Below the pieces are notes generated by a model. The model made no database searches, had not been told where the DNA came from, and was given only the letters and a program-made list of their open reading frames with translations. Made by a program: the position numbers and the translations under genes. This document shows, piece after piece, positions 9,188 through 27,985 of a DNA stretch of 64,000 nt. Source of the stretch: Candidatus Kaiserbacteria bacterium (GTDB lineage: Bacteria > Patescibacteriota > Minisyncoccia > Phycocordibacterales > Phycocordibacteraceae); assembly GCA_023264445.1 (NCBI GenBank), contig JAHFMN010000001.1, positions 69,928 to 133,927 on the forward strand. The letters run 5' to 3'. Position 1 is the stretch's first letter; every line of letters begins with the position of its first letter.

Positions 9188-9260
9188 GGGCCCGTAGCTC
9201 ACTTGGTAGAGCGCCTCATTTGCAATGAGGAGGTAACCGGTTCGATCCCGGTCGGGTCCA
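9188..9260 (+). tRNA. tRNA-Ala (anticodon UGC)
   Basis: Cloverleaf GGGCCCG acceptor, D arm GCTC/GAGC, anticodon stem CCTCA/TGAGG with loop TTTGCAA, and T arm ACCGG-TTCGATC-CCGGT. It has G3:U70 and A73. CCA is not encoded. Confidence 0.85.
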
Positions 9261-9312
9261 CATACATCTCAGTTAAGTGCGATGCTCCACAGCGGGCTGA
9301 TATACTGCACGC

Positions 9313-10086
9313 ATGGAACTCATCGCAGGAGATAAGGAGCTCGAGGCGCTCAATGCACAATTAGATGACCCGAATCAGTTGCAGGCGTACAAGACTCCGC
9401 ACGACAACTATCATCCGCTCTTCCTTCCGCGTCTTCTCGGCCGCGTCTTGGTCGGCTGCGGGAACCTGGTGTATGGGCATGAGCCGTCGTATCTGAAATT
9501 CCGGTCGATAGAAATCGTCGCGCGCGTGCCATACCAATCATGGTCTTCTGCGGTCTATACGCTCCTCACCATGTTCTATGCCGATGAGCACAAGGCCATA
9601 CGATTCTCAAACGTTTCCCGCTATGCGCGCATCGCGCAAGATAACGAGACGATGCACGTCGTAGTCATCTCCCAGCTTGCGCGCACAGAGGGGAGAGCAG
9701 GGCTCATACGGCATACGCTTCTGCCGATGTTCTTTGCGTTCTTTTATTTCTGGGCATCCTACATCCTCTATCTGATGCGGCCTCGCTGGTCTTTCGAACT
9801 CAATTATCTCTTTGAACAGCACGCATTTGACCAATATAATCGCTTTCTTGAACAGTACCGCGAAGAACTGAAAAAGAAGCCGGCTGAAAGCGAATTCCTC
9901 ACCTGGTACGGGCGCAATCCGCGCTCTCAATTTGAGTTTTTCCAATCCGTCCGCAATGACGAACTGATCCACCGCAATCAGTCCGTCCGTGCGGTGAATA
10001 CAGAAGCGGATGCTTACCGTGTACATTCTTTGAAATTTGTTGCGATTGGCGCTGTTATCGTTCTGCTTGTTCTTATTCTGATATAA
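9313..10086 (+). CDS. alternative oxidase (AOX/PTOX)-like di-iron carboxylate protein with a C-terminal TM helix
   Basis: Segments NETMHV (like NERMHL), RNDELIHRN (like RADEAHHR), FEQHA (like LEEEA) and IEIVARVP match the four AOX iron-ligand helices. A C-terminal hydrophobic helix is present. Confidence 0.6.
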   Translation: MELIAGDKELEALNAQLDDPNQLQAYKTPHDNYHPLFLPRLLGRVLVGCGNLVYGHEPSYLKFRSIEIVARVPYQSWSSAVYTLLTMFYADEHKAIRFSNVSRYARIAQDNETMHVVVISQLARTEGRAGLIRHTLLPMFFAFFYFWASYILYLMRPRWSFELNYLFEQHAFDQYNRFLEQYREELKKKPAESEFLTWYGRNPRSQFEFFQSVRNDELIHRNQSVRAVNTEADAYRVHSLKFVAIGAVIVLLVLILI

Positions 10087-10145
10087 GAAGAAAGTCTCCG
10101 CACGTCTGGGAATCCGGTCCCGCATCTGGTATGGTACGAGCGTGC

Positions 10146-10219
10146 GCGCTCTTAGCTCAGTTGGTTAGAGCGTTCGCCTCACACGCGAAAGGTCATAGGT
10201 TCGAATCCTATAGAGCGCA
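10146..10219 (+). tRNA. tRNA-Val (anticodon CAC)
   Basis: Acceptor GCGCTCT/AGAGCGC, D arm GCTC-AGTTGGTTA-GAGC, anticodon loop CTCACAC, and T arm ATAGG-TTCGAAT-CCTAT. Confidence 0.85.
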
Positions 10220-10236
10220 CAAGAGGTGTTCTATGT

Positions 10237-10307
10237 CGGGCCGGAGTATGCCGGTAGTACATGCGCTTCGGGTGCGTAAGGACCGAGTTCAATTCTCGGC
10301 GGCCCGA
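10237..10307 (+). tRNA. tRNA-Pro (anticodon CGG)
   Basis: Acceptor CGGGCCG/CGGCCCG, anticodon stem TGCGC/GCGTA with loop TTCGGGT, and T arm CCGAG-TTCAATT-CTCGG. The D stem is short (3 bp). Confidence 0.75.
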
Positions 10308-10328
10308 CAAAGAACATCTCTCAAGAGG

Positions 10329-10402
10329 CGGGCTATCGTATACCGGTAGTACGCATGCATGGGGTGCATGTAGACCGGGTTCGATTCCCGGTAGCCCGAC
10401 CA
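10329..10402 (+). tRNA. tRNA-Pro (anticodon GGG), CCA encoded
   Basis: Acceptor CGGGCTA/TAGCCCG, anticodon stem CATGC/GCATG with loop ATGGGGT, and T arm CCGGG-TTCGATT-CCCGG, followed by ACCA. Confidence 0.75.
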
Positions 10403-10430
10403 AATATCGTCATGCTAGAATCGTGCGCAC

Positions 10431-10563
10431 GGGCCATTAGCTCAGCTGGTAAGCCGGTCAAAATCCGAAACCCAGTCCGGCTTCCCGACGGCACTTGCCT
10501 CGCATGAACAATATGAAGACATATGTTCATGCACTCGGCTCGCTTGCCGGTAGAGCGCGTTAT
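10431..10563 (+). pseudogene. tRNA-Ala 5' fragment with a ~100-nt structured insertion in the D-loop
   Basis: 21 nt GGGCCATTAGCTCAGCTGGTA are identical to the 5' end of the tRNA-Ala(CGC) 170 nt downstream. They are followed by a 101-nt insert with two hairpins, then GAGCGCGT matching tRNA positions 22-29. No 3' half or T arm follows. Confidence 0.6.
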
Positions 10564-10600
10564 TGTGATCCTATAGGTTTTCAGTATCCTGTAAGTAATC

Positions 10601-10673
10601 GGGCCATTAGCTCAGCTGGTAGAGCGCGTCATTCGCATTGACGAGGTCAGCGGTTCGACTCCGCTATGGTCCA
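10601..10673 (+). tRNA. tRNA-Ala (anticodon CGC)
   Basis: Acceptor GGGCCAT/ATGGTCC with G3:U70, D arm GCTC-AGCTGGTA-GAGC, anticodon loop TTCGCAT, and T arm AGCGG-TTCGACT-CCGCT. Confidence 0.85.
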
Positions 10674-10698
10674 CTGGGCTTCAAAGGGAAACAATCGC

Positions 10699-10769
10699 GG
10701 GCCTATGGTGAAGCGGTATCACGCGTCCATGGCATGGACGAAGTCGGGGTTCGACTCCCCGTAGGTCCA
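10699..10769 (+). tRNA. tRNA-Ala (anticodon GGC)
   Basis: Acceptor GGGCCTA/TAGGTCC with G3:U70, anticodon stem CGTCC/GGACG with loop ATGGCAT, and T arm CGGGG-TTCGACT-CCCCG. Confidence 0.8.
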
Positions 10770-10822
10770 CAAAAGTACGAAGTAGTTTTGTGGACCTATG
10801 CGCCATGCCTGCGCATGGCGCG
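10762..10822 (+). terminator. two consecutive perfect hairpins after the tRNA array
   Basis: GGTCCACAAAA-loop-TTTTGTGGACC is an 11-bp stem that reuses the tRNA 3' end. GCGCCATGC-CTGC-GCATGGCGC is a 9-bp stem. There is no T-run, so function as a terminator or processing site is uncertain. Confidence 0.35.
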
Positions 10823-15787: not shown

Positions 15788-16732
15788 ATGGATAAACCAA
15801 AAACAACGCCAAAAGATTTCTTCCTGTGGGCCGGGGCGATGGTTGCATTCTATTGGGCCATCATTGCCTACACGTTTCTTATTTTTGATTACATCAACTA
15901 CGCGCTTCCGAACGCACTTACGTATTATCCAAGCGATCCCTATCAGAGCGGCATCAGCTACGAAATGGCTTCAGTAATCGTTCTCCTACCGCTCTATATG
16001 TTCCTCATGCAGCTCATTCGTCGTGGCATTGTTCTCGATGCGTCCCGTAAAGAAATCTGGGTGCGCCGCTGGGCGCTCATTCTCACGCTCTTCGTCGCCG
16101 GCGTGGCGATAGCAGGAGACCTCATCACGCTTCTCACCACCTTCCTCAATGGGGAAGAACTCACGATGGCATTCATTCTCAAAGTGCTCACCATCTTCCT
16201 TATTGCAGCAGGAGTCTTCATGCACTTTACTGCGGACCTCAAGGGATACTGGGAGCTGTTTCCAAGCCGAAAACGTCTCCTTGGTGTCAGCGTCGGAATG
16301 CTCGCACTCGGCACGATTGTCGCAGGCTTCTTCATCGTAGGTACGCCGGCCGAAGCACGTCTTGCGCGCTTTGACACACAGAAGGTAAACGATTTGCAGA
16401 ACATACAGTCGCAAGTCGTGTACTACTGGCAGGCGAAGCAGCAACTGCCGATGACGATCACTGACCTCAATAACTCTCTCTCCTACGGCCCAGTACCGGT
16501 GGATCCCCAGACAGGGAAGTCGTACGTCTACCAAACGGTCGGGGCACTCTCCTTCAAGCTGTGTGCAGTGTTTAACGCAGAAAGCCGCACAGGTGTCATG
16601 CCCATCGAAAACCGCCCGATTCCGGTAGGGGAGAAGGGTCTCCCGGATAATTGGCAACATGACGCCGGTCAGGTGTGTTTCGACCGGACTATCGATCCGA
16701 GCTTCTATCCACCGCTCACGAAGCAGCTGTAA
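15788..16732 (+). CDS. hypothetical membrane protein (N-terminal multi-TM region plus C-terminal soluble domain)
   Basis: Six predicted TM helices followed by a domain of about 110 aa. No confident family assignment. Confidence 0.6.
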   Translation: MDKPKTTPKDFFLWAGAMVAFYWAIIAYTFLIFDYINYALPNALTYYPSDPYQSGISYEMASVIVLLPLYMFLMQLIRRGIVLDASRKEIWVRRWALILTLFVAGVAIAGDLITLLTTFLNGEELTMAFILKVLTIFLIAAGVFMHFTADLKGYWELFPSRKRLLGVSVGMLALGTIVAGFFIVGTPAEARLARFDTQKVNDLQNIQSQVVYYWQAKQQLPMTITDLNNSLSYGPVPVDPQTGKSYVYQTVGALSFKLCAVFNAESRTGVMPIENRPIPVGEKGLPDNWQHDAGQVCFDRTIDPSFYPPLTKQL

Positions 16733-16755
16733 CAGCCGGTTACGGTATCGGCCAC

Positions 16756-19590
16756 ATGGCGTACGACCACACAGAGATCGAGAAAGCAGCCCGAGAGAAA
16801 TGGGCCAGTCTTAATCTCTACACGGTCGACTTCTCTGATAATGTAAAAGACCCGTATTATCTCCTTGTCGAGTTCCCGTACCCCTCGGGTGATCTCCATA
16901 TCGGGCATTGGTACGCGTTTGCGGTGACCGACATCTATGCGCGCATGCTGCGCGCGCGGGGAAAGAATGTTCTGTTCCCAATCGGATTCGATGCGTTCGG
17001 ACTGCCCGCGGAAAATGCAGCTATCAAGAATGGCCTTGATCCGAAGGAGTGGACGTATAAGAACATGGAACGCATGCGGCAGCAGCTGACAACGATGGGC
17101 CCGTCATTTGATTGGTCAAAAGAAGTTGTGACCTGCGAACCGGGGTACTACCAGTGGACGCAGTGGCTCTTCGTGAAGCTTTTTGAGCAAGGACTTGCCG
17201 AGCATCGTGAAGCAGCAGTCAAATGGTGTCCGAAGGATCAGACGGTGCTTGCAAACGAACAGGTCATCGACGGCTGCTGTGAGCGCTGTAGTACGCCAGT
17301 GGAAGAGAAAAGACTGACGCAGTGGTTCCTCAAGATTACCGACTATGCCGAGCGACTCCTCACCGGTCTCGATGCGCTCCCATGGCGCGAAGAGATAAAG
17401 GAAGCACAGCGTGCATGGATAGGGAAAAGCGAAGGCGCGTATCTGGAATTTCCAATCGTTGGTCGCGATGAGAAGATTAAGGTCTTCACAACGCGTCCCG
17501 ACACGGTGTTCGGTGCCACGTATGCAGTGCTTGCGCCGGAGCACGCGCTTGTCTCGGCGCTGTTGCCTGCTATTTCAAATAAAAAAGAAGTTGAAGCATA
17601 TGTGCATGCCACTGCACAGAAGACTGAACGAGAACGTAGTGAAAACAAAGAGAAGACCGGTGTGAAGCTCGAAGGAGTGAACGCGGTACATCCCGCAACA
17701 AATGAGGAAATTCCAATTTTCGTCGCCGATTATGTCATAGGTTCGTATGGCACCGGCGCGCTGATGGCAGTCCCAGCACACGATGAGCGAGATAGTGAGT
17801 TTGCACAAAAAATGGGCATACCCGTTCGTCAAGTTATTGCACCGCGGTATCACCAGACGACTGAGCCAGGAATCTATCGGCCGGAGGAACCGACCACAGA
17901 AAAAGACGGCATCATCGTCCTCATCAAACACTGGAAGGAAGAGAAATACCTCGGTCTCAAGTGGAAAGAGGTCGCATGGGGAACCCTACTCACCGGCGGT
18001 GTTGACGAGGGACTCACGCCAGAAGAAACGGTGTTCAAAGAAATCAAGGAGGAAACAGGATATCTGCACCTACAGATCAAACAGAAATTCGGAGTCGTCG
18101 ATGGACTCTTCTATCACGTACCGAAGCAGAAGAATCAGCATGTACACGGGCATATGTTTTATGTCGAGCTGAAAGATGGCGAGCAAGAAGCCATCAGCAA
18201 GGACGAATCTTCAAAACACGACCTAGTCTGGCTCACGGTAGAAGAATTGGAAACATTCCTTACGCCCGATACGCACAAACACACCTTGAATCTATTCCGT
18301 AACGGGCCGCAACCGTACACCGGAAATGGCTCTCTTGTCAGTTCGGGCGAATTTTCCGGCCGCGAGAGTGAAGATGCAAAATGGGAGATTGTGAAGCATG
18401 TCGGCGGAGAAAAGACCACTCAATATCGCATTCGGGATTGGCTCGTTTCCCGCCAGCGATACTGGGGATGTCCTATACCGATTGTCTATGATCCTGAAGG
18501 GAAGCCGCGTCCGATCCCGAAGGAGCATCTGCCGTGGCTTCTGCCAACCGATGTAGACTTCACGCCCACCGGCAAGGCGCCACTTGCGTCTTCAAAGGAA
18601 TTGCAGGAGCGCGTGACGAAGCTATTCGGCGAAGGATGGACGCCAGAATACGACACGCTCGATACCTTCGTTGATTCCTCCTGGTACTTCCTCCGCTATC
18701 TTGATCCGAAAGATCTGCATGATTTCTCGGATGCAGCTCTTATGAAGAAATGGATGCCGGTCAACCGATACTCGGGCGGGAGCGAACACACGACGATGCA
18801 CCTTCTCTATGCTCGGTTCTTTACGAAAGCGCTCTATGACCTCGCACTCGTGCCCGTGGATGAGCCGTTTACCGAACGTTTCAATCGCGGACTCATCATG
18901 GGTCCCGATGGACAAAAAATGAGCAAGTCAAAAGGGAACGTCGTGAATCCGGATGAATTTGTGCAGAAATATGGCGCAGATGCCGTACGGCTTTTCCTCG
19001 CTTTCATCGGCCCGTATAACGAACCGGGAAGTTATCCATGGAGCTTGGAAGGCGTTGCTTCCATGCGTAAATTCCTTGAGCGCGTTATGCGCCTCACGGA
19101 ACGGGCTCAAGACGTATCCGAAGTGGGTAATGAACTGCAGCAGGCGATTGCACGGGCAAGCATAAAGGTCTCCAAAGACGGTGATCGATTTAAATTCAAT
19201 ACCGGCGTTGCAGCACTCATGATTCTCGTCAACGAACTTGAAGCTTCCGTAGCTGTGCCAAAAACTGCATTGAGTTCTTTCCTCGTCATGCTCGCTCCTT
19301 TTGCGCCTCATATCGCTGAATACCTATGGGAGAAACTCGGAGGAGAAGGGAGTATCCACCAGCAGGCGTGGCCAGTGTTTGACGCGAGCACTCTTGTCGA
19401 GAGTTCAGCGGAAGTTGTGGTTCAGGTCAACGGCAAGCGGCGTGGCTCGCTCACCCTCGCCACCGATATTTCCGAGGAGGAAGCCGTTCGTGCTGCACGT
19501 GCGCTTCCCGCTGCCGCCGCGGCGCTTGCCGGAAAGGATCCTTCGCGCACCGTATATGTCCCGGGGAAAATCATCAATCTGGTCGGATAA
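16756..19590 (+). CDS. leuS: leucyl-tRNA synthetase carrying an inserted Nudix-hydrolase-like domain
   Basis: HIGH (HIGHWYAF), the CP1 editing domain (TTRPDT...MAVPAHDERD), RDWLVSRQRYWG and KMSKS. In addition there is a ~150-aa insert between the AHDERD motif and SSGEFSG that contains a Nudix box GGVDEGLTPEETVFKEIKEETGY. Confidence 0.92.
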   Translation: MAYDHTEIEKAAREKWASLNLYTVDFSDNVKDPYYLLVEFPYPSGDLHIGHWYAFAVTDIYARMLRARGKNVLFPIGFDAFGLPAENAAIKNGLDPKEWTYKNMERMRQQLTTMGPSFDWSKEVVTCEPGYYQWTQWLFVKLFEQGLAEHREAAVKWCPKDQTVLANEQVIDGCCERCSTPVEEKRLTQWFLKITDYAERLLTGLDALPWREEIKEAQRAWIGKSEGAYLEFPIVGRDEKIKVFTTRPDTVFGATYAVLAPEHALVSALLPAISNKKEVEAYVHATAQKTERERSENKEKTGVKLEGVNAVHPATNEEIPIFVADYVIGSYGTGALMAVPAHDERDSEFAQKMGIPVRQVIAPRYHQTTEPGIYRPEEPTTEKDGIIVLIKHWKEEKYLGLKWKEVAWGTLLTGGVDEGLTPEETVFKEIKEETGYLHLQIKQKFGVVDGLFYHVPKQKNQHVHGHMFYVELKDGEQEAISKDESSKHDLVWLTVEELETFLTPDTHKHTLNLFRNGPQPYTGNGSLVSSGEFSGRESEDAKWEIVKHVGGEKTTQYRIRDWLVSRQRYWGCPIPIVYDPEGKPRPIPKEHLPWLLPTDVDFTPTGKAPLASSKELQERVTKLFGEGWTPEYDTLDTFVDSSWYFLRYLDPKDLHDFSDAALMKKWMPVNRYSGGSEHTTMHLLYARFFTKALYDLALVPVDEPFTERFNRGLIMGPDGQKMSKSKGNVVNPDEFVQKYGADAVRLFLAFIGPYNEPGSYPWSLEGVASMRKFLERVMRLTERAQDVSEVGNELQQAIARASIKVSKDGDRFKFNTGVAALMILVNELEASVAVPKTALSSFLVMLAPFAPHIAEYLWEKLGGEGSIHQQAWPVFDASTLVESSAEVVVQVNGKRRGSLTLATDISEEEAVRAARALPAAAAALAGKDPSRTVYVPGKIINLVG

Positions 19591-19638: not shown

Positions 19639-20718
19639 ATGAAAAAGACACGTTCGAGCACTGCGCATGCAAAGGGGCGGACTGTCCCCAGTACCTCGTT
19701 TTCTTTTGATGCTGCGACGCTTGCGAAGCGTCTTCTTGCTGCAGCTCCAGAACGTTCTCGAGAGGTCCTTACTCGCCGCTTCGGTCTCGGTGCTTCTCCC
19801 GAGCGCGAGACTCTCGAGGCAATCGGGGATCGCTCGAGCATCACGCGCGAGCGCGTACGGCAGATCGAAGCAGCTGGCCTCGATGCGATACGCTCAAGCA
19901 AAGTTTTCAAAGAAGCCGCTACTGCTTTTGATGAAATTGCAAAATACATCCATTCGCTTGGTGCCATCGTGCCTGAAGAGACTCTCCTTTCCGCGCTCGG
20001 TAAGGATGAAAAGAACCGCAATCGTTTCCGCTTCTTCCTCATGGTCAATGCAGCATTTTTCCGCGAACGTGAGACGAACGATTTCCTCGCGCGCTGGCAC
20101 GTGGATCATACGACGGCAAAGCATATCCACTCGGCACTGACGCGGCTCTATTCTTCGCTTTCTGATACCGACGTTGTTACCGAAGGAGAACTTCTTGACC
20201 GTTTTCTTGATGAACTCAAAGAGGTAAATGATGCGTACAAGAATGAAGAGGTGCTGAAGCGCTGGCTCTCGCTCTCCAAGCACATCGGCAGTAATCCGCT
20301 CACGCAATGGGGCCGTGTCACGGCACCTGCTATCCGCATCAAGGGCGTTCGCGATTACGCGTATCTTGCCGTAAAGCGTCATGGCACCCCGATGCATTTC
20401 TCTGAAGTGGCGAAGACCATCGGCGCGCTGTTCTCCAAGAAGGCGCATATTGCGACGACGCACAACGAGCTCATCAAGGATCCACGCTTCGTGCTGGTCG
20501 GTCGCGGACTCTATGCACTTACCGAATGGGGCTATACGCCGGGCGTCGTACGCGACGTCATCCGCGAGACGCTCGAGGAGAAGGGACCGATGAAAAAGGA
20601 GGAAATCATCAAACATGTGAAGAAGGCACGTTTCGTGAAGGACAACACCATTCTGGTCAATTTGAATGATTCTCGTTACTTCAAACGCATGAAGGACGGT
20701 CGTTACGCGGCAGTCTAA
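19639..20718 (+). CDS. regulatory protein with an N-terminal sigma-70 region-4-like HTH and a C-terminal HARE-HTH domain
   Basis: TLEAIGDRSSITRERVRQIEAAGLDAIR resembles region 4.2. The C-terminal HFSEVAKTIGALF...FVLVGRGLYALTEWGY resembles HARE-HTH, as in the RpoE delta subunit N-terminus. Confidence 0.6.
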   Translation: MKKTRSSTAHAKGRTVPSTSFSFDAATLAKRLLAAAPERSREVLTRRFGLGASPERETLEAIGDRSSITRERVRQIEAAGLDAIRSSKVFKEAATAFDEIAKYIHSLGAIVPEETLLSALGKDEKNRNRFRFFLMVNAAFFRERETNDFLARWHVDHTTAKHIHSALTRLYSSLSDTDVVTEGELLDRFLDELKEVNDAYKNEEVLKRWLSLSKHIGSNPLTQWGRVTAPAIRIKGVRDYAYLAVKRHGTPMHFSEVAKTIGALFSKKAHIATTHNELIKDPRFVLVGRGLYALTEWGYTPGVVRDVIRETLEEKGPMKKEEIIKHVKKARFVKDNTILVNLNDSRYFKRMKDGRYAAV

Positions 20719-20815: not shown

Positions 20816-22180
20816 ATGCTGCCGTTCTTCGAATGGGTGACAGATCTACGAGATACGATTACCGGTACATTTGGCCTCCGCTTCCATCCGTGGCCGATTT
20901 TCATACTCGGCCTTGCACTCCTCGTCGTGTCATACCTCTTCATGCCGGATGCGGTCTCTCTCGCTTTTTCAATCGCGCTTTTCCTCGCACCTCTGTGGCT
21001 ACCGTTCCTGCTCGTGAACGCAGCACTCATGCTCTGGCTTATCTTGAAACAAGGAGAGTTCATCTCATCCCAGAAATATCTTTTGCTTGAAATAAAGCCG
21101 CCACGAAACTTGGTGAAGACTCCGCTCGCAATGGAAGCTTTCCTATCTACATTGCACATAGGCCCCGGTGAGAGTACGTGGTATGTACGGTGGATGAAAG
21201 GTGCTCTGCGCCCGTGGTGGTCGCTTGAGATAGCGTCGTTCGAAGGTCAGGTCCATTTCTTCATATGGACGCGAGCCAACTTCCGCCGCATGATTGAGAC
21301 GCAGATATATGCGCAGTATCCGGGCGCGCAGATAGTCGAGGCGCCCGACTATACACGACTTATCAGCGGGACAATAGAAGATTTTGGTATCTGGGGCTGT
21401 GATTTTAAACACACTAACGCAACGCCACTTCCCATCAAAACATATATTGAATACGGGCTTGACCAGGTGCAGAAGGAGCCGGAACAGGTCGATCCGCTTG
21501 CAAACCTCATTGAATTTATGGGTTCAGTGGGCAAGGGTGAATACCTCTGGCTCCAGATGATATTCCGCCAACATAAGGGAGAGCGATACGGGAAACTCAA
21601 CGAAAAAGGTAAAGCGTATACGTGGACCGATGAGGCAAAAGAGATGATCGATAAGATACGCAAGGAAACTCGCGAACCGTATGTGGATCCTATGACCGGT
21701 AAAGAGATGCCGGGATTTCCGAGTCCGACGAAAGGGCAGGCAGAGAAAATTGCAGCTATCGAACGCAATGTTTCGAAACAGGGTTTTGATGTCGGCATCC
21801 GCTGCATCTATCTTGCGAAGAAGGATTCATTCAATCCTATCGTCATCACCCAGATGAACGGGCTTTTCAATCCCTTCAACTCACTAGGATGGAACGGCAT
21901 TGGAGCGGCCGAATGGCTCCGGCATTTCGATGACTATCCATGGGAAATCGGTGTGGAAAAAAAGAAGGACCTGTATCGTCGCAAACTCGTTGAAGCGTTT
22001 CGCCGTCGTCAGTTCTTCCATGAACCGTTTTCTTTTGGTGTTGCGCCGAAAGATATCATGGTCATGAGCACGGAAGAGCTTGCGACCGTCTACCATATAC
22101 CTTCGCGTGCCGTCGAGACGCCAGGCCTCACGCGCATCCAGTCAGCGACGAGCGAAGCGCCTCCGAACCTGCCGACCTAA
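20816..22180 (+). CDS. hypothetical membrane protein (2 N-terminal TM helices plus a ~380-aa soluble domain)
   Basis: Long ORF with no Walker motif or recognisable family. The TATACT -10 box is immediately upstream (leaderless). Confidence 0.6.
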   Translation: MLPFFEWVTDLRDTITGTFGLRFHPWPIFILGLALLVVSYLFMPDAVSLAFSIALFLAPLWLPFLLVNAALMLWLILKQGEFISSQKYLLLEIKPPRNLVKTPLAMEAFLSTLHIGPGESTWYVRWMKGALRPWWSLEIASFEGQVHFFIWTRANFRRMIETQIYAQYPGAQIVEAPDYTRLISGTIEDFGIWGCDFKHTNATPLPIKTYIEYGLDQVQKEPEQVDPLANLIEFMGSVGKGEYLWLQMIFRQHKGERYGKLNEKGKAYTWTDEAKEMIDKIRKETREPYVDPMTGKEMPGFPSPTKGQAEKIAAIERNVSKQGFDVGIRCIYLAKKDSFNPIVITQMNGLFNPFNSLGWNGIGAAEWLRHFDDYPWEIGVEKKKDLYRRKLVEAFRRRQFFHEPFSFGVAPKDIMVMSTEELATVYHIPSRAVETPGLTRIQSATSEAPPNLPT

Positions 22181-22185
22181 TACGC

Positions 22186-23139
22186 ATGGATTTTCTCAAG
22201 CGCCATCTCCGCTGGCTCGTTGTGCTTATAGGCGTTTTCTTCATAGGCGGGTATGCTGCGTTTATTGCTCCGCCTACAAATTTCCCTTCAGGGAATATCG
22301 TTGTCATCGCGCGCGGAGCTTCAGTGTCTGACATTGCGGCGGAGCTCTTTCATGCGCGCGCCATCAAGCATCCGACGGTCCTGCAAGTGCTTCTGCGTAT
22401 GTCGGGTACGAGTTCTCGGGTACAGGCGGGTGCCTATCTTTTCAAATCTCCTGAAAATGTATTTACCATCGCGTATCGGCTTGTCGCCGGAGTGTATGGT
22501 CTCCCGCCGGTGCGCATCACTTTTCCCGAAGGAGACACGGTTCGTGATATTGCTGCGCGGGTGCATGACGCATTTCCAAATATCACCGAGTCGGACTTTC
22601 TTGTAAAAGCGCAATCGTATGAAGGCTATCTTTTCCCCGATACCTATCTCTTCTCATCATCCTCTGATATCGAGTCAATTCTGAAAACGATGCGCACGAA
22701 TTTTGAGACCAAGATAGCGACGATAGCGGACGATGTATCATCATCGGGACATTCACTTTCCGATATCGTTATCATGGCTTCTCTGGTAGAGAAGGAAGCG
22801 CGTACGATAGAGAACAAGCGAATCATTGCGGGCATCCTTTGGAGTCGACTCTCGCTCGGCATGCCGCTTCAAGTAGATGCTGTCTTTGGCTTCATTCTTG
22901 GACGCGATACGTATTCGCCGTCGTTTGCAGATTTGAAAATCGCTTCGCCCTATAATACGTATATCCATACCGGCCTCCCGCCTGGTCCGATAGATAATCC
23001 GGGAATGGAAACGATTGAAGCCGTTCTGCATCCGACAAAAACAAGTTATCTTTACTATCTTACTGACAAAGAGGGCGTGATGCACTACGCAACGACCTAT
23101 GCCGTCCACCAAGCTAACCAAAAAAGGTATTTGCAGTAG
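22186..23139 (+). CDS. mltG: endolytic murein transglycosylase MltG (YceG-like)
   Basis: N-terminal TM helix and the C-terminal motif YNTYIHTGLPPGPIDNPG. Confidence 0.88.
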   Translation: MDFLKRHLRWLVVLIGVFFIGGYAAFIAPPTNFPSGNIVVIARGASVSDIAAELFHARAIKHPTVLQVLLRMSGTSSRVQAGAYLFKSPENVFTIAYRLVAGVYGLPPVRITFPEGDTVRDIAARVHDAFPNITESDFLVKAQSYEGYLFPDTYLFSSSSDIESILKTMRTNFETKIATIADDVSSSGHSLSDIVIMASLVEKEARTIENKRIIAGILWSRLSLGMPLQVDAVFGFILGRDTYSPSFADLKIASPYNTYIHTGLPPGPIDNPGMETIEAVLHPTKTSYLYYLTDKEGVMHYATTYAVHQANQKRYLQ

Positions 23140-23150
23140 AATGCGCGGTA

Positions 23151-24080
23151 ATGGATATACGAGGAAAGAAGATATTCATAGGGCTGTCGGGGGGCGTGGA
23201 CTCGGCCGTATCTGCAGCGCTTTTACAGCGTACAGGAGCGCGCGTGACAGGTGTCTACATCAAGGGATGGTACCCGCCTGGGATGCCCTGCACCTGGGCC
23301 GCGGAGCGTCGCGATGCAATGCGGGTGGCGGCGCGGCTCCACATCCCATTCCTTACGCTAGACGCAAGCATGGAATACAAGAAGGGAGTCATTGACTATC
23401 TGCTTGCGGAATATCGCGCAGGTCGGACGCCGAATCCGGACGTCATGTGCAATAAGGATGTGAAGTTTGGTGCATTTTATCGCTTCGCAAAAGAGCAGGG
23501 AGCCGATGCTATTGCAACCGGACACTACCGCAGTGGAGAAAAAGACCAGAGCTATTTCCTCTGGGCCGTGCCGAAAGACATTTTGGAAACAACGATATTT
23601 CCCATTGGTCATATGGAGAAGATCGAGGTGCGCAGACTCGCAAAGAAATGTAATCTGCCGGTTGCCGAAAAGAAGGATAGTCAAGGAGTTTGTTTCCTTG
23701 GTTCCGTGTCAATCGAAGATTTCTTGAAGCAGGAATTTGGAAGCGATAATCCAGCTCTCCTCTACACGATAGGGCAGCGAGTCCCACTGCCGGATGGTCC
23801 ATGGTACGCCGTTGGGAAGGATGTTGGAAAAAAAGAAATCAAGGTTTCAAAGATGCGTATACCTGCTACGCAGGAAGCATGTTTTACTAGCCAAAATTGG
23901 TTTGGCGACCCGGCAGATGTACACGAAGCACAGTATCGCTATCGGGGCCCACATATAGAGGGTCATATAGAAGGGAATCGGTTTATAAGCACTAAACCGA
24001 TTCCGGATATTCCGGCGCCCGGTCAATCACTCGTTTTCTATCGTGATGGCAAATTAATTGGCGGGGGAATTATTGTGTAA
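23151..24080 (+). CDS. mnmA: tRNA-specific 2-thiouridylase MnmA
   Basis: PP-loop GLSGGVDSAV, NPDVMCNKDVKFG, and a 309-aa body. Confidence 0.88.
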   Translation: MDIRGKKIFIGLSGGVDSAVSAALLQRTGARVTGVYIKGWYPPGMPCTWAAERRDAMRVAARLHIPFLTLDASMEYKKGVIDYLLAEYRAGRTPNPDVMCNKDVKFGAFYRFAKEQGADAIATGHYRSGEKDQSYFLWAVPKDILETTIFPIGHMEKIEVRRLAKKCNLPVAEKKDSQGVCFLGSVSIEDFLKQEFGSDNPALLYTIGQRVPLPDGPWYAVGKDVGKKEIKVSKMRIPATQEACFTSQNWFGDPADVHEAQYRYRGPHIEGHIEGNRFISTKPIPDIPAPGQSLVFYRDGKLIGGGIIV

Positions 24081-24105: not shown

Positions 24106-24519
24106 ATGACGTATTCACGGCTCTGGGTGATGGCAGCTATCATTGCCGGCATCATCCTCATCGGTTTCGTGCTTTCGGTGCCGCATACCCGCGAGATTCC
24201 CGGCGCATCACTTTCGGAGAGCACTACCCCACATATCTCAAGTGTCTCCCTGCACGATTCTTTCAAGAAGGGGCTCCACACCATCACTGGATCTATTGAA
24301 GTACCAAATGCATGTGCGTCGGTCATCGCCGAGGCCTCACTCACCGGAGAGGCGTCTACAACCAGTAGAATCCTCGTAGCGATCTTATTGCCGGAAGATA
24401 CCGGCGTCTGCCTGCAAGTGCCGACTGTCATGCACTTCTCGACGACAATTAGTGCACCAGCAGGCCTTCCAATTGAAGCGACGGTCAATGGTATTGCTGC
24501 CACCACGAGTGTGTCATGA
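24106..24519 (+). CDS. membrane-anchored hypothetical protein (first gene of a five-gene overlapping operon)
   Basis: N-terminal TM helix plus a ~100-aa exported domain. Its stop overlaps the next start (ATGA). Confidence 0.5.
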   Translation: MTYSRLWVMAAIIAGIILIGFVLSVPHTREIPGASLSESTTPHISSVSLHDSFKKGLHTITGSIEVPNACASVIAEASLTGEASTTSRILVAILLPEDTGVCLQVPTVMHFSTTISAPAGLPIEATVNGIAATTSVS

Positions 24520-25385
24520 ACGGCTTACCTGTCATCGTAAAGGCCGATGGAACGAAGCAGGTATTTGACCCAATGCGTCTGATCGTTTCACTGCGCCGAG
24601 CGGGTGCAGGAGAGCACACGGCAGAACAGATTGCACACGTCATCACCGAGACACTTGTGCCCGGTACGAGCTCGAAAGAGATTTATGCCCGCGCCTTTGC
24701 GCTTCTGCGCAAAGAAGCACGACCCGTTGCCGCACGGTATGCGCTTCGCCGTGCGCTTCTGGAGCTTGGTCCCACTGGGCATCCTTTTGAGGATTTCATT
24801 TCGCATTTATTTCGAGCGGAGGGGTGGCAGGTTGAGACGCGGAAAATCATCCGTGGAGCATGTGTCGCGCACGAAGTTGACCTCTATGCATCGCACGAAG
24901 AGCAGAACACGTTTCTCGCCGCCGAGCTTAAGTATCATAATGATCCGGGCTATAAGACCGATCTGAAAGTTGCGCTCTACGTGAAGAGTCGTTTCGATGA
25001 CATCTTCTCATGCGATCCAACCGTGCGCGCTTGCCCGATTGACCGGGGATTGCTCGTCACGAATACCAAGTTCACCTCAGAAGCAATCGCATATGCCGAG
25101 TGTGCAGGTGTGGAGCTCCTCGGCTGGAGCTACCCGGCGCACGATAATCTCTTCCTGCGCATGAGTCGCGCGGCGGTGTACCCAATCACCACTTTGACCG
25201 GTCTCTCGCACGCTGAGAAACGGCTTCTCATCGAGCGCGGTATCATCGCTGTTGACGACATCATGCAGGATCGCCGCACGCTCGACCCCATCCATCTCTC
25301 GAGTGAGCGAATTGGAGAGGTTCTTGCCGAGATTGATGGTCTCCTTAGGCTTCCTCTGGTGCCGCATGATATTGTTCCCGTATGA
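24516..25385 (+). CDS. ATP-cone domain fused to an Mrr-type restriction-endonuclease (PD-(D/E)XK) domain
   Basis: N-terminal VIVKADGTKQVFDPMRLIVSL is ATP-cone-like, as in NrdR or RNR. The C-terminal HLFRAEGWQVE...HEVDL...AAELKYH carries the D...ExK catalytic triad of the Mrr catalytic domain. Confidence 0.65.
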   Translation: MNGLPVIVKADGTKQVFDPMRLIVSLRRAGAGEHTAEQIAHVITETLVPGTSSKEIYARAFALLRKEARPVAARYALRRALLELGPTGHPFEDFISHLFRAEGWQVETRKIIRGACVAHEVDLYASHEEQNTFLAAELKYHNDPGYKTDLKVALYVKSRFDDIFSCDPTVRACPIDRGLLVTNTKFTSEAIAYAECAGVELLGWSYPAHDNLFLRMSRAAVYPITTLTGLSHAEKRLLIERGIIAVDDIMQDRRTLDPIHLSSERIGEVLAEIDGLLRLPLVPHDIVPV

Positions 25386-25858
25386 TGCAGCGCTTTTCAA
25401 CAACTTCCTTCATTCTTGGAGTGATGTTCGGAGCTCTTGTCTCAGCTGCGTGGTTTCTAAATGGTCCTACTGGACTCACCCCTTTCTCCAGCTCGCCTTT
25501 TCTTGCTACGACAGTTGATTCCTTGCTGCCGCAAAGTAGTGCAATAATCGTGGCCGATCAGTCTGCTGGCCCAAGCGTCACTATTGAGTCGGTGACCATA
25601 CCATCACTTCCCATCTGGGTTGCCGTACTTGAGACGAATGGTCACGAATTAGGGAACGTGCTTGGTGCCGCACGCATTCTTGGTTCGCACAGCAGTATCA
25701 CTGTCACACTCCTGCGGGCGACCGAGCCAAATCGTACGTACGCAGTCGAACTCTATCGGGATGACAATTACGGCGTTTTTGATCCGTCAGAGAACAGTGT
25801 CTACGTAGATTTCGATACCGGTATGCGCGCGGTTTCCTACTTCACGACCACTCCCTAG
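25382..25858 (+). CDS. membrane-anchored hypothetical protein (possible paralogue of the 24106 gene)
   Basis: N-terminal TM helix plus an exported beta-rich domain. ATGA overlap with the upstream gene. Confidence 0.5.
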   Translation: MMQRFSTTSFILGVMFGALVSAAWFLNGPTGLTPFSSSPFLATTVDSLLPQSSAIIVADQSAGPSVTIESVTIPSLPIWVAVLETNGHELGNVLGAARILGSHSSITVTLLRATEPNRTYAVELYRDDNYGVFDPSENSVYVDFDTGMRAVSYFTTTP

Positions 25859-25859
25859 C

Positions 25860-26648
25860 ATGGCTTCAAAATTCAGCCGCAGCGGCCCGTTTGACCCGTC
25901 TTCGCCAGAACCGTTTAAGGTAAGTCGTTCTAAAATAGATTTATTCTCTGAGTGCCAGCGATGCGCGTATCTGGATATGAAATTGGGGGTGAGACGCCCC
26001 TCGATGCCCGCCTTCACACTCAACAACGCGGTGGATGAACTCTTGAAGCGGGAGTTTGACATCCATCGTGCGAATGCCAGTAAGCATCCGCTCGTTGAGA
26101 AGTACGGTCTTGATGCCGTACCGCTTGATGATGAGCGGATGGAAGAGTGGCGTGACGCTTTGCGGCGCGGTATTGCGTACCTCCACGCGCCGACGAATAT
26201 CTTAGTGCGCGGTGGCATTGACGACGTATGGGTTAATCCAGAAGGGGAGTTCATCATCGTGGATTACAAGGCGACAAGTAAAAAGGTGGGACCAAGCACA
26301 GAGGACGATTTATACGATTCGTACAAGCGGCAGCTGGAGATTTATCAGTGGCTCTTTCGTCAGAATGGCTTCAAGGTCTCGCCGACGGTGTACTTTGTGT
26401 ACGTAAACGGGAAATCCGATGCAAAGGCGTTCGATGGAAAACTTGAATTCGATGTGGAGCTCATTCCATACACGGGAAGCGATGCGTGGGTCGAGCCCGC
26501 AATCTATGACCTGAAGGAGATGCTCATGAGCGACGATATACCGCCGGTCGGGAAGGCATTTGGCGGCGGCCCCTGCGACTACTGCACGTATCGTGAGAGT
26601 GCTGGTAAAATCCTTCTTGATTTGCATACCAAAAATAAAAAGAAATGA
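25860..26648 (+). CDS. PD-(D/E)XK nuclease with a Cas4/AddB-like four-cysteine Fe-S motif
   Basis: The N-terminus SKIDLFSECQRCAYLD is like Cas4 (S.S.L..Y..CPR..YL). Catalytic motifs VDYK and QLEIYQW are present, with a C-terminal CDYC. No cas neighbours and no CRISPR array. Confidence 0.6.
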   Translation: MASKFSRSGPFDPSSPEPFKVSRSKIDLFSECQRCAYLDMKLGVRRPSMPAFTLNNAVDELLKREFDIHRANASKHPLVEKYGLDAVPLDDERMEEWRDALRRGIAYLHAPTNILVRGGIDDVWVNPEGEFIIVDYKATSKKVGPSTEDDLYDSYKRQLEIYQWLFRQNGFKVSPTVYFVYVNGKSDAKAFDGKLEFDVELIPYTGSDAWVEPAIYDLKEMLMSDDIPPVGKAFGGGPCDYCTYRESAGKILLDLHTKNKKK

Positions 26649-26908
26649 GAAAGTCATTTGCCGATTACGTGCGAGACGCCGTGCGCCAGATTCCGAAAGG
26701 GCAGACCCGCACCTATGGCGAGGTTGCGAGAGTCATCGGCCATCCCGGCGCCGCGCGCGCCGTTGGTACCATCATGAAAAATAATTATGACCCCAGTGTG
26801 CCGTGTCATCGAGTCATCAAGAGCGATGGCACTATCGGTGATTACAATCGAGGCGGTTCTGCAAAAAAGCGCTCTCTTTTGAAAGCCGAGGGAGTGAGAG
26901 GAATATAG
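26645..26908 (+). CDS. ogt: minimal methylated-DNA--protein-cysteine methyltransferase (DNA-binding/active-site domain only)
   Basis: The PCHRVI active-site motif and a TYGEVA...HTH-like region. 87 aa. ATGA overlap with the upstream gene. Confidence 0.75.
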   Translation: MRKSFADYVRDAVRQIPKGQTRTYGEVARVIGHPGAARAVGTIMKNNYDPSVPCHRVIKSDGTIGDYNRGGSAKKRSLLKAEGVRGI

Positions 26909-26910
26909 CA

Positions 26911-27578
26911 ATGGAAGTGAAAATCGAGTCATCGTGGAAAGACAAATTGCATGTCGAATTTGAACAGGATTATTTTGCACAGCTCACGAGCTTTATAAAA
27001 AGGAATATCAAGAAGGGAAGGTGTACCCGGCGCCGAAGAATATCTTCCGCGCCTTCGACCTTTGTCCTTTTGGTAAGGTAAAAGTCGTTATTCTGGGACA
27101 AGACCCGTACCATGGGGCGCGACAGGCCAACGGTCTTTCATTCGCTGTTGATGCAAATGAAGTGGTTCCACCCTCGCTTAAAAATATATTTAAAGAGATA
27201 GGAAGCGACTTTGGCAAGCCGCTCGTGCATACCGACGGCGATCTCTCGCGTTGGGCGAAGCAGGGCGTCTTGCTCCTGAACGCGACGCTGACCGTGCGAG
27301 CCGGCGCTGCCGGCTCGCACCAGGAGAAGGGCTGGGAACAATTTACCGATGCCATTATCCGCGCGCTTTCCGAGGAACGCGGACATCTGGTCTTTATGCT
27401 CTGGGGCAATTACGCAAAGGCGAAGGGCGCGCACATCGACCGAAGCAAGCACCTCGTGCTTGAAGCGCCGCATCCATCGCCGTTTTCCGCCGCTTCCGGC
27501 TTCTTCGGCTGTAAACACTTCAGCAAGGCCAACGAGTACCTCATCGCCAATGGAGAGACACCAATAGACTGGTTGTAG
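26911..27578 (+). pseudogene. ung: uracil-DNA glycosylase (family 1) with a frameshift in an A5 run
   Basis: The N-terminal 29 codons (MEVKIESSWKDKLHVEFEQDYFAQLTSFI) are in one frame. The rest (EYQEGKVYPAPKNIF...VVILGQDPYHG...HPSPLSA) is in the +1 frame. The join is at AAAAA 26997-27001; one extra A would restore a ~222-aa Ung. Confidence 0.7.
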
Positions 27579-27585
27579 ACATTGT

Positions 27586-27597
27586 GATATAATATCG
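27586..27597 (+). promoter_or_regulatory. extended -10 promoter TGTGATATAAT
   Basis: TGnTATAAT-type element about 44 nt upstream of the 27641 ATG. Confidence 0.35.
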
Positions 27598-27640: not shown

Positions 27641-27985
27641 ATGAATCAGATGCGCTTCATTGCTGTCTTCACGTTCGGTCTTGACCGCCCTATGACGGGA
27701 TTAATTCTTGCTAAGGCCGATAAGGGGACTTTGACTCATGCGGAGCTGGCCAAGTACTACAATCTAACGTCTGACACGCCGATGTACGCCGGGTATCTGA
27801 CCCTGGAATCTGGCAAAATCTTTACCTTCGGGGGAAGTCCTTCGCTCGGTATCTTCTTCGATGAGAAGAAGAATCGGAAGGTTGAGGAAGAAGTCGAGTC
27901 GTTCGCACGCCTCAGTAACGGAGCCCTCTTCCTCTCCGACAACTTCGCCCAGAGGAAGCTTGCGCACGTGATGCTGAACCGGTAG
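27641..27985 (+). CDS. hypothetical protein
   Basis: 114-aa ORF with a terminator downstream. No recognisable domain. Confidence 0.45.
   Translation: MNQMRFIAVFTFGLDRPMTGLILAKADKGTLTHAELAKYYNLTSDTPMYAGYLTLESGKIFTFGGSPSLGIFFDEKKNRKVEEEVESFARLSNGALFLSDNFAQRKLAHVMLNR

Follow-up and report, generated by a model that had tools for sequence, protein, structure and literature searches.

The segment of DNA considered here, hereafter the window, comprises 64,000 nucleotides of the genome of a Candidatus Kaiserbacteria bacterium (assembly GCA_023264445.1, contig JAHFMN010000001.1, positions 69,928 to 133,927). It contains five consecutive genes on the same strand, g1 to g5, followed by a disrupted gene for the uracil-DNA glycosylase Ung (Table 1). 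A first-pass annotation had described g1 to g5 as one translationally coupled operon, in which two membrane-anchored proteins alternate with two PD-(D/E)XK nucleases and a minimal alkyltransferase (Ogt) stands at the end. The five open reading frames (ORFs) called there were all confirmed. Reading the junctions directly from the window sequence, we found 4-nt ATGA overlaps at g1/g2, g2/g3 and g4/g5. The g3/g4 junction, TAG-c-ATG, contains a 1-nt spacer, so that the claim of overlaps throughout the block applied to three of its four junctions. The start of ung 2 nt behind g5 was as annotated.

Table 1. Genes and other features of the window; positions are those of the 64,000-nucleotide stretch.
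Feature	Position	Strand	Description
g1	24106-24519	+	137 aa; N-terminal transmembrane helix and small all-beta domain
g2	24516-25385	+	289 aa; ATP-cone, AF1548/Mrr-type PD-(D/E)XK domain and AF1548-like C-terminal helical domain
g3	25382-25858	+	158 aa; N-terminal transmembrane helix and DUF7282
g4	25860-26648	+	262 aa (product on record); RecB/Cas4/EXO5-class PD-(D/E)XK nuclease
g5 (ogt)	26645-26908	+	87 aa; single-domain O6-alkylguanine-DNA alkyltransferase
ung	26911-27578	+	family-1 uracil-DNA glycosylase; frame broken by 1-nt deletion
mltG (YceG-like)	22186-23139	+	Pfam YceG, E=4.7e-72; 11 nt before mnmA
mnmA (tRNA 2-thiouridylase)	23151-24080	+	Pfam tRNA_Me_trans, E=6e-60
sigma-70-like promoter match	27565-27593	+	TAGACT-17-TATAAT, TG upstream; just past ung
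tRNA genes (six)	9188-10770
leucyl-tRNA synthetase	16675-19590		971 aa
sigma-like protein	19639-20718		359 aa; Sigma70 region 4 and HARE-HTH
u3	20816-22180		454 aa
ORF	27641-27985		114 aa

Start/stop overlaps of 4 nt occurred at only four of the 52 same-strand neighbour pairs of the window, three of them within g1 to g5. On these grounds we rejected mere genome compaction as their explanation, and the clustering of these rare overlaps indicates that the block is more than a chance arrangement. Short gaps were also found upstream, between u3 and mltG (5 nt), between mltG and mnmA (11 nt) and between mnmA and g1 (25 nt), mltG belonging, further upstream, to the same closely spaced string of co-directional genes as g1 to g5. 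A consensus scan for promoters and terminators revealed no convincing internal sites, the match counts being at or below shuffle expectation.

The conservation of the locus was studied with 80 species-representative loci harboring an orthologue of g2 (71-81% identity), onto each of which the window proteins were mapped. A well-flanked subset of 47 loci was used for presence counts and median identities. Close homologues of g2 (75-83% identity) are present by the thousands in metagenome-assembled genomes of Paceibacterota and Kaiserbacteria. The gene order common to the 80 loci was sigma-like gene, u3, mltG, mnmA, g1, g2, g3, g4, g5, ung, HD, M13 (opposite strand) and alaS, a syntenic stretch that extends over more than 13 kb and is bounded by the sigma-like gene and alaS. 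Thus, the order of the five genes is not unique to this genome, and the refutation that the first-pass annotation had envisaged for that case did not come about. Since synteny is conserved over a long string of housekeeping genes, it does not single them out either.

Not all members of the block were retained to the same extent. Among the well-flanked loci mnmA, g2 and g4 were present in all 47 and ung and g1 in 46 each, while g3 was found in 33 (absent from 14) and g5 in 24 (absent from 23). The complete gene set existed in only 16. Across all 80 loci, g1 was detected in 78 and g3 in 57, and mltG was syntenic in 70. ATGA junctions were widely conserved between mnmA and g1 (61/76), g1 and g2 (76/78) and g2 and g3 (49/57), and g4 typically started at +1 relative to g3. 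In the relatives the stop codon of mnmA, the most constant gene upstream of g2, usually overlaps the start codon of g1, instead of which the window contains its 25-nt spacer. This indicates that the coupled chain normally begins with the tRNA-modification gene. Median identities were 76% for g2, 80% for g4, 81% for Ung, 73% for alanyl-tRNA synthetase (AlaRS), 68% for MnmA, 58% for MltG, 55% for g1 and 54% for g3. Both nucleases are therefore under a constraint of housekeeping grade, comparable to that on Ung and AlaRS, and g1 and g3 show the weakest conservation and are the members of the block that are most easily dispensed with; ogt, too, is often missing. Where g3 was missing, g2 abutted g4 in nine loci. 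In six loci a murE-like ligase gene on the opposite strand took the place of g3 between the two nuclease genes, and in four more a murE-like gene was accompanied there by asnB (inserts of approximately 1.27 kb in L011, L014, L021, L028 and L074; murE-like gene plus asparagine synthetase gene, approximately 3.15 kb, in L044, L048, L050 and L073). Co-transcription of g2 and g4 is thus not obligatory.

The g2 protein revealed an Mrr_cat domain (PF04471) with 25.4 bits, above the Pfam cutoff of 21, and an ATP-cone (PF03477) with 23.8 bits, just under the cutoff of 25.8. The ATP-cone was also matched (E<=0.01) in 13 of 14 close g2 homologues, and most of the distant homologues have precomputed PF03477 matches. 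The designation of g2 as an ATP-cone fused to an Mrr-type nuclease was thus upheld for the nuclease domain, while the ATP-cone is made likely by the homologues, its own score in g2 lying slightly below the cutoff. Residues 94-274 of g2 could be aligned to the structural-genomics protein AF1548 (PDB 1Y88) with E=2.6e-22, including the D...E-x-K triad of AF1548 that is predicted to be catalytic (PMC1821046). The triad of g2, D122 and E137-x-K139, was invariant in alignments of close and distant homologues. AF1548, whose C-terminal domain type is listed as AF1548-like_C (PF22357), shares with g2 the nuclease domain but is itself devoid of an ATP-cone. The same three-part architecture of approximately 280 aa is found in the NCBI family 'ATP cone domain-containing protein / restriction endonuclease', of which the Kaiserbacteria-like g2 proteins form a compact subgroup that shares no more than 45% identity with other members and resides in another gene context. 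The PD-(D/E)XK catalytic core is also shared with Mrr-type (type IV) restriction endonucleases. However, Mrr carries an N-terminal winged-helix domain for modified DNA at the place of the ATP-cone, and Mrr-type enzymes are patchily distributed, whereas g2 belongs to the vertically inherited core and has metabolic neighbours in other phyla. In the ATP-cones of ribonucleotide reductase and NrdR, nucleotides are contacted by an N-terminal K-R-x-G motif. The whole g2 family exhibits K-A-x-G at this position (KADG in the window), by which nucleotide binding, though plausible, is not assured. A literature search disclosed no functional or biochemical work on the ATP-cone/AF1548 nuclease family or on the cluster.

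The g4 protein matched PDDEXK_1 (PF12705) with E=6.7e-12 and 46.3 bits (cutoff 22), and the Cas4 equivalog TIGR00372 with 31.1 bits, which is under the cutoff of 65. A sequence search of the PDB yielded no relative of g4, and its closer placement comes from a fold search alone. Using an AlphaFold2 (AF2) model (predicted local distance difference test score, pLDDT, 75), Foldseek gave a probability of 1.0 to RecE, the AdnAB nuclease, EXO5, Cas4 and MGME1, with modest template modelling (TM) scores of 0.3-0.46. With Cas4, AddB/AdnAB, EXO5 and MGME1, g4 has in common the D...D-Y-K residues followed by a QxxxY-type motif, as well as cysteines at both termini. Four cysteines, C32-x2-C35 and C239-x2-C242, were invariant in the alignment of relatives. 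The iron-sulfur (Fe-S) cluster of Cas4 and AddB is held by one N-terminal Cys and a C-terminal CX2CX5C motif. The pattern of g4, CX2C...CX2C, differs from this canonical C...CX2CX5C spacing, which leaves the Fe-S label unproven. From the earlier description of g4 as a Cas4-like Fe-S nuclease the nuclease class was therefore retained, and the Fe-S cluster is a guess. Unlike the Cas4 proteins of CRISPR systems, g4 has no cas1, cas2 or array nearby, and it stands alone without a helicase partner.

Comparison of g4 between related loci (L001-L080, L120, L133, L142, L149 and L162) disclosed an unusual pattern of variation. Among the close species g4 fell into four identity clusters of 55, 12, 5 and 2 loci, with 54-59% identity between clusters. 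In all flanking genes, g3 and g5 included, identity within the g4 classes equaled identity between them, and no g4-like structure was observed. On a tree computed from a concatenate of six flanking genes the minor classes were scattered, and 12 changes were required compared to 14.2 for random labels, a count that is soft as the tree is star-like. Several species with a minor-class g4 were significantly nearer to major-class species by their flanking genes. The possibility that the g4 classes merely track a sub-clade was thus largely rejected. Furthermore, the minor clusters resembled the g4 of distant Parcubacteria, and one distant locus contained a g4 of the major cluster. Together, these data suggest that g4 alone underwent repeated xenologous replacement at the same site. 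The absence of any co-variation in g2 argues against an intimate interface between g2 and g4.

For both small proteins encoded by g1 and g3, a single N-terminal hydrophobic helix was detected by Kyte-Doolittle analysis. The helix of g1 comprises approximately residues 6-25, the 19-residue maximum being 2.65 at residue 7. A single-sequence AF2 model of g1 showed a transmembrane helix and a six-strand beta domain with low confidence (pLDDT 59.5). Its cysteines C70 and C102 were invariant. No Pfam, NCBIfam or PADLOC model matched g1, while g3 was assigned to DUF7282 (PF23951; 34.4 bits, cutoff 27), a family that was mentioned in none of the papers searched. A DNA-binding domain was found in neither protein with Pfam and NCBIfam. 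The two proteins had been described as anchored and compositionally similar. Anchoring agrees with the hydrophobic helix in each of them, but the compositional similarity does not reflect homology, which we rejected after BLASTP (E=14) and a profile-profile comparison with hhalign (78 versus 57 sequences; probability 0.1%). Only about 5-8 residues of g1 and g3 would be left on the cytoplasmic side, which makes them poor candidate partners for cytoplasmic nucleases.

The product of g5 is indeed a minimal Ogt. It consists of the C-terminal domain alone (PF01035, DNA_binding_1; E=2.6e-29, 101 bits), passed TIGR00589 with 79.5 bits (cutoff 46.4) and retains the PCHR active site within 'VPCHRVI'. 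It shares this domain and the PCHR cysteine with full-length Ogt/MGMT proteins and does not possess their N-terminal domain. Alkyltransferase-like (ATL) proteins likewise exist without the N-terminal domain, but the reactive Cys is retained in g5. The gene ung is frameshifted, as had been noted. One A is missing from an A5 run at 26997-27001, and the remaining C-terminal ORF of 185 aa still matched NF003589 with 286 bits (cutoff 223). The relatives encode an intact Ung, most often of 222 aa (30 of 61 ORFs measured), which reads ...FVKKEYxxGxVYPAPKNIF... A second ENA contig, 100% identical over 8,984 bp, has the same ung sequence and may stem from the same data. The frameshift may be a sequencing error, a pseudogene or a site of low-level slippage, three cases that look alike in the DNA sequence. 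Re-pairing of Lys-tRNA in the -1 frame on A-AAA-A would restore the relatives' ...FIKKEYQEGKVYP... in ung.

To follow g2 beyond the close relatives, 1.8 billion cluster representatives (50% identity level) were searched. The architecture of approximately 280 aa proved to be widespread at 35-45% identity, with at least 390 representatives at E<1e-30. The named distant members belong mostly to Bacteroidota, besides other lineages of the candidate phyla radiation (CPR). Eighty metagenome loci of distant homologues were inspected and showed two types of context. Type A, found in other Parcubacteria whose MnmA is 40-45% identical to that of the window, has the order (sigma-like, u3, mltG,) mnmA, (g1,) g2, (g3,) g4, (g5,) (ung), the genes in brackets being variable. 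Among the 80 distant loci mnmA was located upstream in 23, g4 downstream in 13, g1 in five and g3 in seven. The core of mnmA, g2, g4, ogt and ung was kept in more distant Parcubacteria, and g2 abutted g4 at -4 to +3 nt in seven of the 13 distant loci possessing g4. Several Parcubacteria have mnmA-g2 without g4 within 10 kb (L099, L110 and L137, and also L140 and L157, in which a P-type ATPase gene follows g3).

In type B (L081-L089, L094, L098, L124, L143, L161, L168, L172 and L173, from Bacteroidota, Chlamydiota and further lineages), the genes behind the g2 homologue encode in turn a beta-CASP nuclease of the metallo-beta-lactamase (MBL) fold, a thymidine-phosphorylase-family protein of approximately 500 aa and a protein similar to phosphoribosyl pyrophosphate (PRPP) synthetase. 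Around them lie genes for a cation P-type ATPase, MgtC, PPK2, an AAA_28 protein (similar to deoxynucleoside kinases, dNK), tandem universal stress proteins (USP), phosphofructokinase (PFK), a protein similar to glyceraldehyde-3-phosphate dehydrogenase (GAPDH), DeoC and a 2-hydroxyacid dehydrogenase. On plasmids of Pontibacter and Criblamydia this arrangement has been annotated as well, and it looks like a cluster for energy, Mg and nucleotide stress. We found no paper describing it. It resembles the window in the g2 family and in a second nuclease gene immediately behind, and MgtC and the P-type ATPase recur in it as they do in some Parcubacteria. It differs by the absence of g1, g3, g4, ogt and ung, by the other fold of its partner nuclease and by its energy, nucleotide and stress neighbours. 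MgtC was located directly 3' of g2 in L099, L110 and L116. Like the P-type ATPase of L140 and L157, it takes the place of g4 in Parcubacteria that have kept mnmA-g2, which links the two context types. Forty-eight distant loci extended at least 3 kb downstream of g2; 11 of them contained g4 and ten a beta-CASP gene (within 4 kb), and 27 contained neither.

We consider it probable, at roughly 60%, that the block is part of a vertically inherited housekeeping string in the core genome of Kaiserbacteria-like Parcubacteria (CPR), whose products act separately, and that it is neither mobile nor devoted to defence. Within this string g4, Ogt and Ung would form a sub-cluster for DNA maintenance. The suggestion that the five genes are a module for the processing of damaged DNA can be upheld only for g4, ogt and ung, and possibly for g2. 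The ancestral order may have been mnmA, g2, g4, ogt and ung, into which two genes would have been inserted later, g1 behind mnmA and g3 ahead of g4. The genes would be transcribed into one long polycistronic message starting at or before mltG/mnmA, and the ATGA junctions would couple the translation of adjacent ORFs. Both g1 and g3 are predicted to be membrane-bound with their beta-domains outside the cell. The g2 protein would be a cytoplasmic PD-(D/E)XK endonuclease, probably gated by a nucleotide-binding ATP-cone, and g4 may process DNA ends as a RecB/Cas4/EXO5-type metal-cluster nuclease. Ogt would reverse O6-alkylguanine damage and Ung would remove uracil, if its frameshift is an assembly error.

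Several observations weigh against this reading. The 4-nt overlaps are no genome-wide habit and yet are conserved among the relatives, which could mean that functionally linked proteins are selected for co-expression in fixed stoichiometry. The adjacency of g2 and g4 has outlasted a divergence over which much of the other gene order could decay, and is compatible with a real partnership. The exchange of g4 for divergent homologues is the sole conflict-like signal at the locus, but a pattern common in conflict genes. As to the assumed gating, the canonical K-R of the ATP-cone is replaced by K-A throughout the g2 family. Finally, the promoter and terminator scans were uninformative, so that a transcription unit is not definable from match counts. 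As for the overlaps, however, the ATGA coupling runs on into the tRNA-modification gene, and therefore even conserved coupling does not delimit a functional module.

The strongest competitor is a two-nuclease unit, to which we give a low but appreciable probability. Here g2 would act as a nucleotide-sensing endonuclease and g4 as a 5'-to-3' exonuclease degrading from the new ends, serving nucleic-acid turnover or nucleotide salvage; Ogt and Ung would merely be co-located. The direct contact of g2 and g4 in the nine Kaiserbacteria-like loci lacking g3, and in more than half of the distant loci with g4, speaks for this arrangement, as does the parallel pairing of g2 homologues with the beta-CASP nuclease, followed by nucleotide-catabolic enzymes, in other phyla. 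One or the other second nuclease was found within 4 kb in 21 of the 48 distant loci. Both g2 and g4 are so strongly conserved that an essential metabolic role would fit, and CPR bacteria are known to lack the de novo synthesis of nucleotides. On the other hand, neither nuclease gene lies downstream in the other 27 of these loci, the Parcubacteria named above have kept mnmA-g2 with no g4 within 10 kb, and an opposite-strand murE-like gene (in four cases with asnB) separates g2 from g4 in about ten species. The replacement of g4 by homologues of about 55% identity, without co-variation of g2, also speaks against an intimate physical interface.

A broader idea, to which we give a similarly low probability, is that g2 represents a widespread class of nucleases gated by the nucleotide pool, each paired with a neighbouring 5'-to-3' exonuclease whose fold is interchangeable (g4 in Parcubacteria, beta-CASP in Bacteroidota, Chlamydiota and others), degrading nucleic acid when ATP, Mg or energy becomes limiting. 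If this were true, the pair would fulfill a core salvage function in nucleotide-auxotrophic CPR bacteria, and selection acting on the exonuclease partner, exerted for instance by phage inhibitors, would account for the repeated exchange of g4 in situ.

The first-pass annotation had stated that the gene set matches no described defence or repair system, and this still holds. Its proposal of a novel defence island was not borne out. Such an island, directed against phages or plasmids and composed of two nucleases and surface-anchored sensor proteins, is in our opinion very improbable. It is true that two PD-(D/E)XK nucleases are present, one Mrr-like and one Cas4-like, that their tight coupling is conserved among relatives and that an arms race, such as one with phage inhibitors of nucleases, can lie behind repeated in-situ replacement of g4 independent of its flanks. 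However, the block is near-universal and vertically inherited, with purifying selection as strong as on Ung and AlaRS. It passes by synteny into housekeeping genes, is embedded among core genes and shows no deviation in GC content. A scan of the block and its flanking genes with the hidden Markov models (HMMs) of PADLOC-DB v2 returned no defence system. For g4 it gave generic sub-threshold Cas4 matches (best E=4e-9) and for g2 one ZorD match (E=0.04), while g1, g3, g5, ung and the flanking genes gave no match. The Pfam scan of 29 window ORFs, which include all called between 15788 and 34871, revealed neither a methyltransferase nor a cas gene, and the repeat scan disclosed no tandem or CRISPR-like repeats in the window, in agreement with the first annotation. 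No phage homologues of g4 were found, and g2 occurred on only 2 of 72,556 plasmids. Moreover, g1, g3 and g5 are dispensable, the few cytoplasmic residues of g1 and g3 offer little for contact with a nuclease, and in other phyla the clusters that harbor the g2 family are metabolic and stress-related.

A competence-associated unit, with g1 and g3 as receptors for DNA outside the cell and g2 and g4 as the enzymes that would process this DNA after uptake, is the least credible of the proposals: exported or anchored proteins do alternate with nucleases in the window and CPR bacteria are thought to scavenge DNA, but no com or pilus genes were found among the 29 annotated window ORFs, g1 shows no relationship to g3, neither of them has a detected DNA-binding domain, and most of the distant lineages with g2-g4 lack both, g3 being absent also from 14 of the 47 close relatives.

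Thus, the tight packing of two nuclease genes in a CPR genome does not amount here to a novel system of immunity. The parts of the block add members to families that are known but uncharacterised, and their order is a housekeeping one that is conserved throughout the lineage. Two very highly conserved nucleases, uncharacterised by experiment, appear to be core to a large CPR clade. The ATP-cone/AF1548 family has consistent but differing gene partners across phyla, by which the hypothesis of a nucleotide-sensing nuclease becomes directly testable.

The surroundings of the block are core genome as well, comprising uvrABC, dnaKJ, rpoA and five aminoacyl-tRNA synthetase genes, with a flat GC content of 0.51-0.54. 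Upstream lie uvrB, uvrA, uvrC, a tRNA cluster, ychF, leuS, the gene for the sigma-region-4/HARE-HTH protein, u3, mltG and mnmA. Downstream of the block an ORFan is followed by genes for an HD (SpoT-like) hydrolase and an M13 peptidase, alaS, rpoA, dnaK, dnaJ, tyrS and a class II (D/K/N-type) aminoacyl-tRNA synthetase gene. Non-coding RNA genes were not detected within the block. The promoter-like site just past ung likely marks the start of the next transcription unit, as a consensus match in a region whose match count is not above shuffle. It is the best such site of the region, and the ORF of 114 aa behind it has no homologue in the 80 related loci and no family match; this ORF is either a lineage-specific ORFan or no gene.

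Some further features of the window were recorded. The leucyl-tRNA synthetase (LeuRS) contains a NUDIX domain at residues 410-531 (Pfam E=1.2e-11) directly after the editing domain, an insertion unusual for LeuRS. The sigma-like protein, whose gene heads the syntenic block, has a median identity of 81%. The u3 protein has no Pfam family, and its gene keeps a syntenic position with the sigma-like gene on one side and mltG on the other; it was found in 68 of the 80 related loci with a median identity of 65%, and in distant Parcubacteria with 36-42% (55% in L099). The six tRNA genes of the window are those for Ala-TGC, Val-CAC, Pro-CGG, Pro-GGG, Ala-CGC and Ala-GGC.

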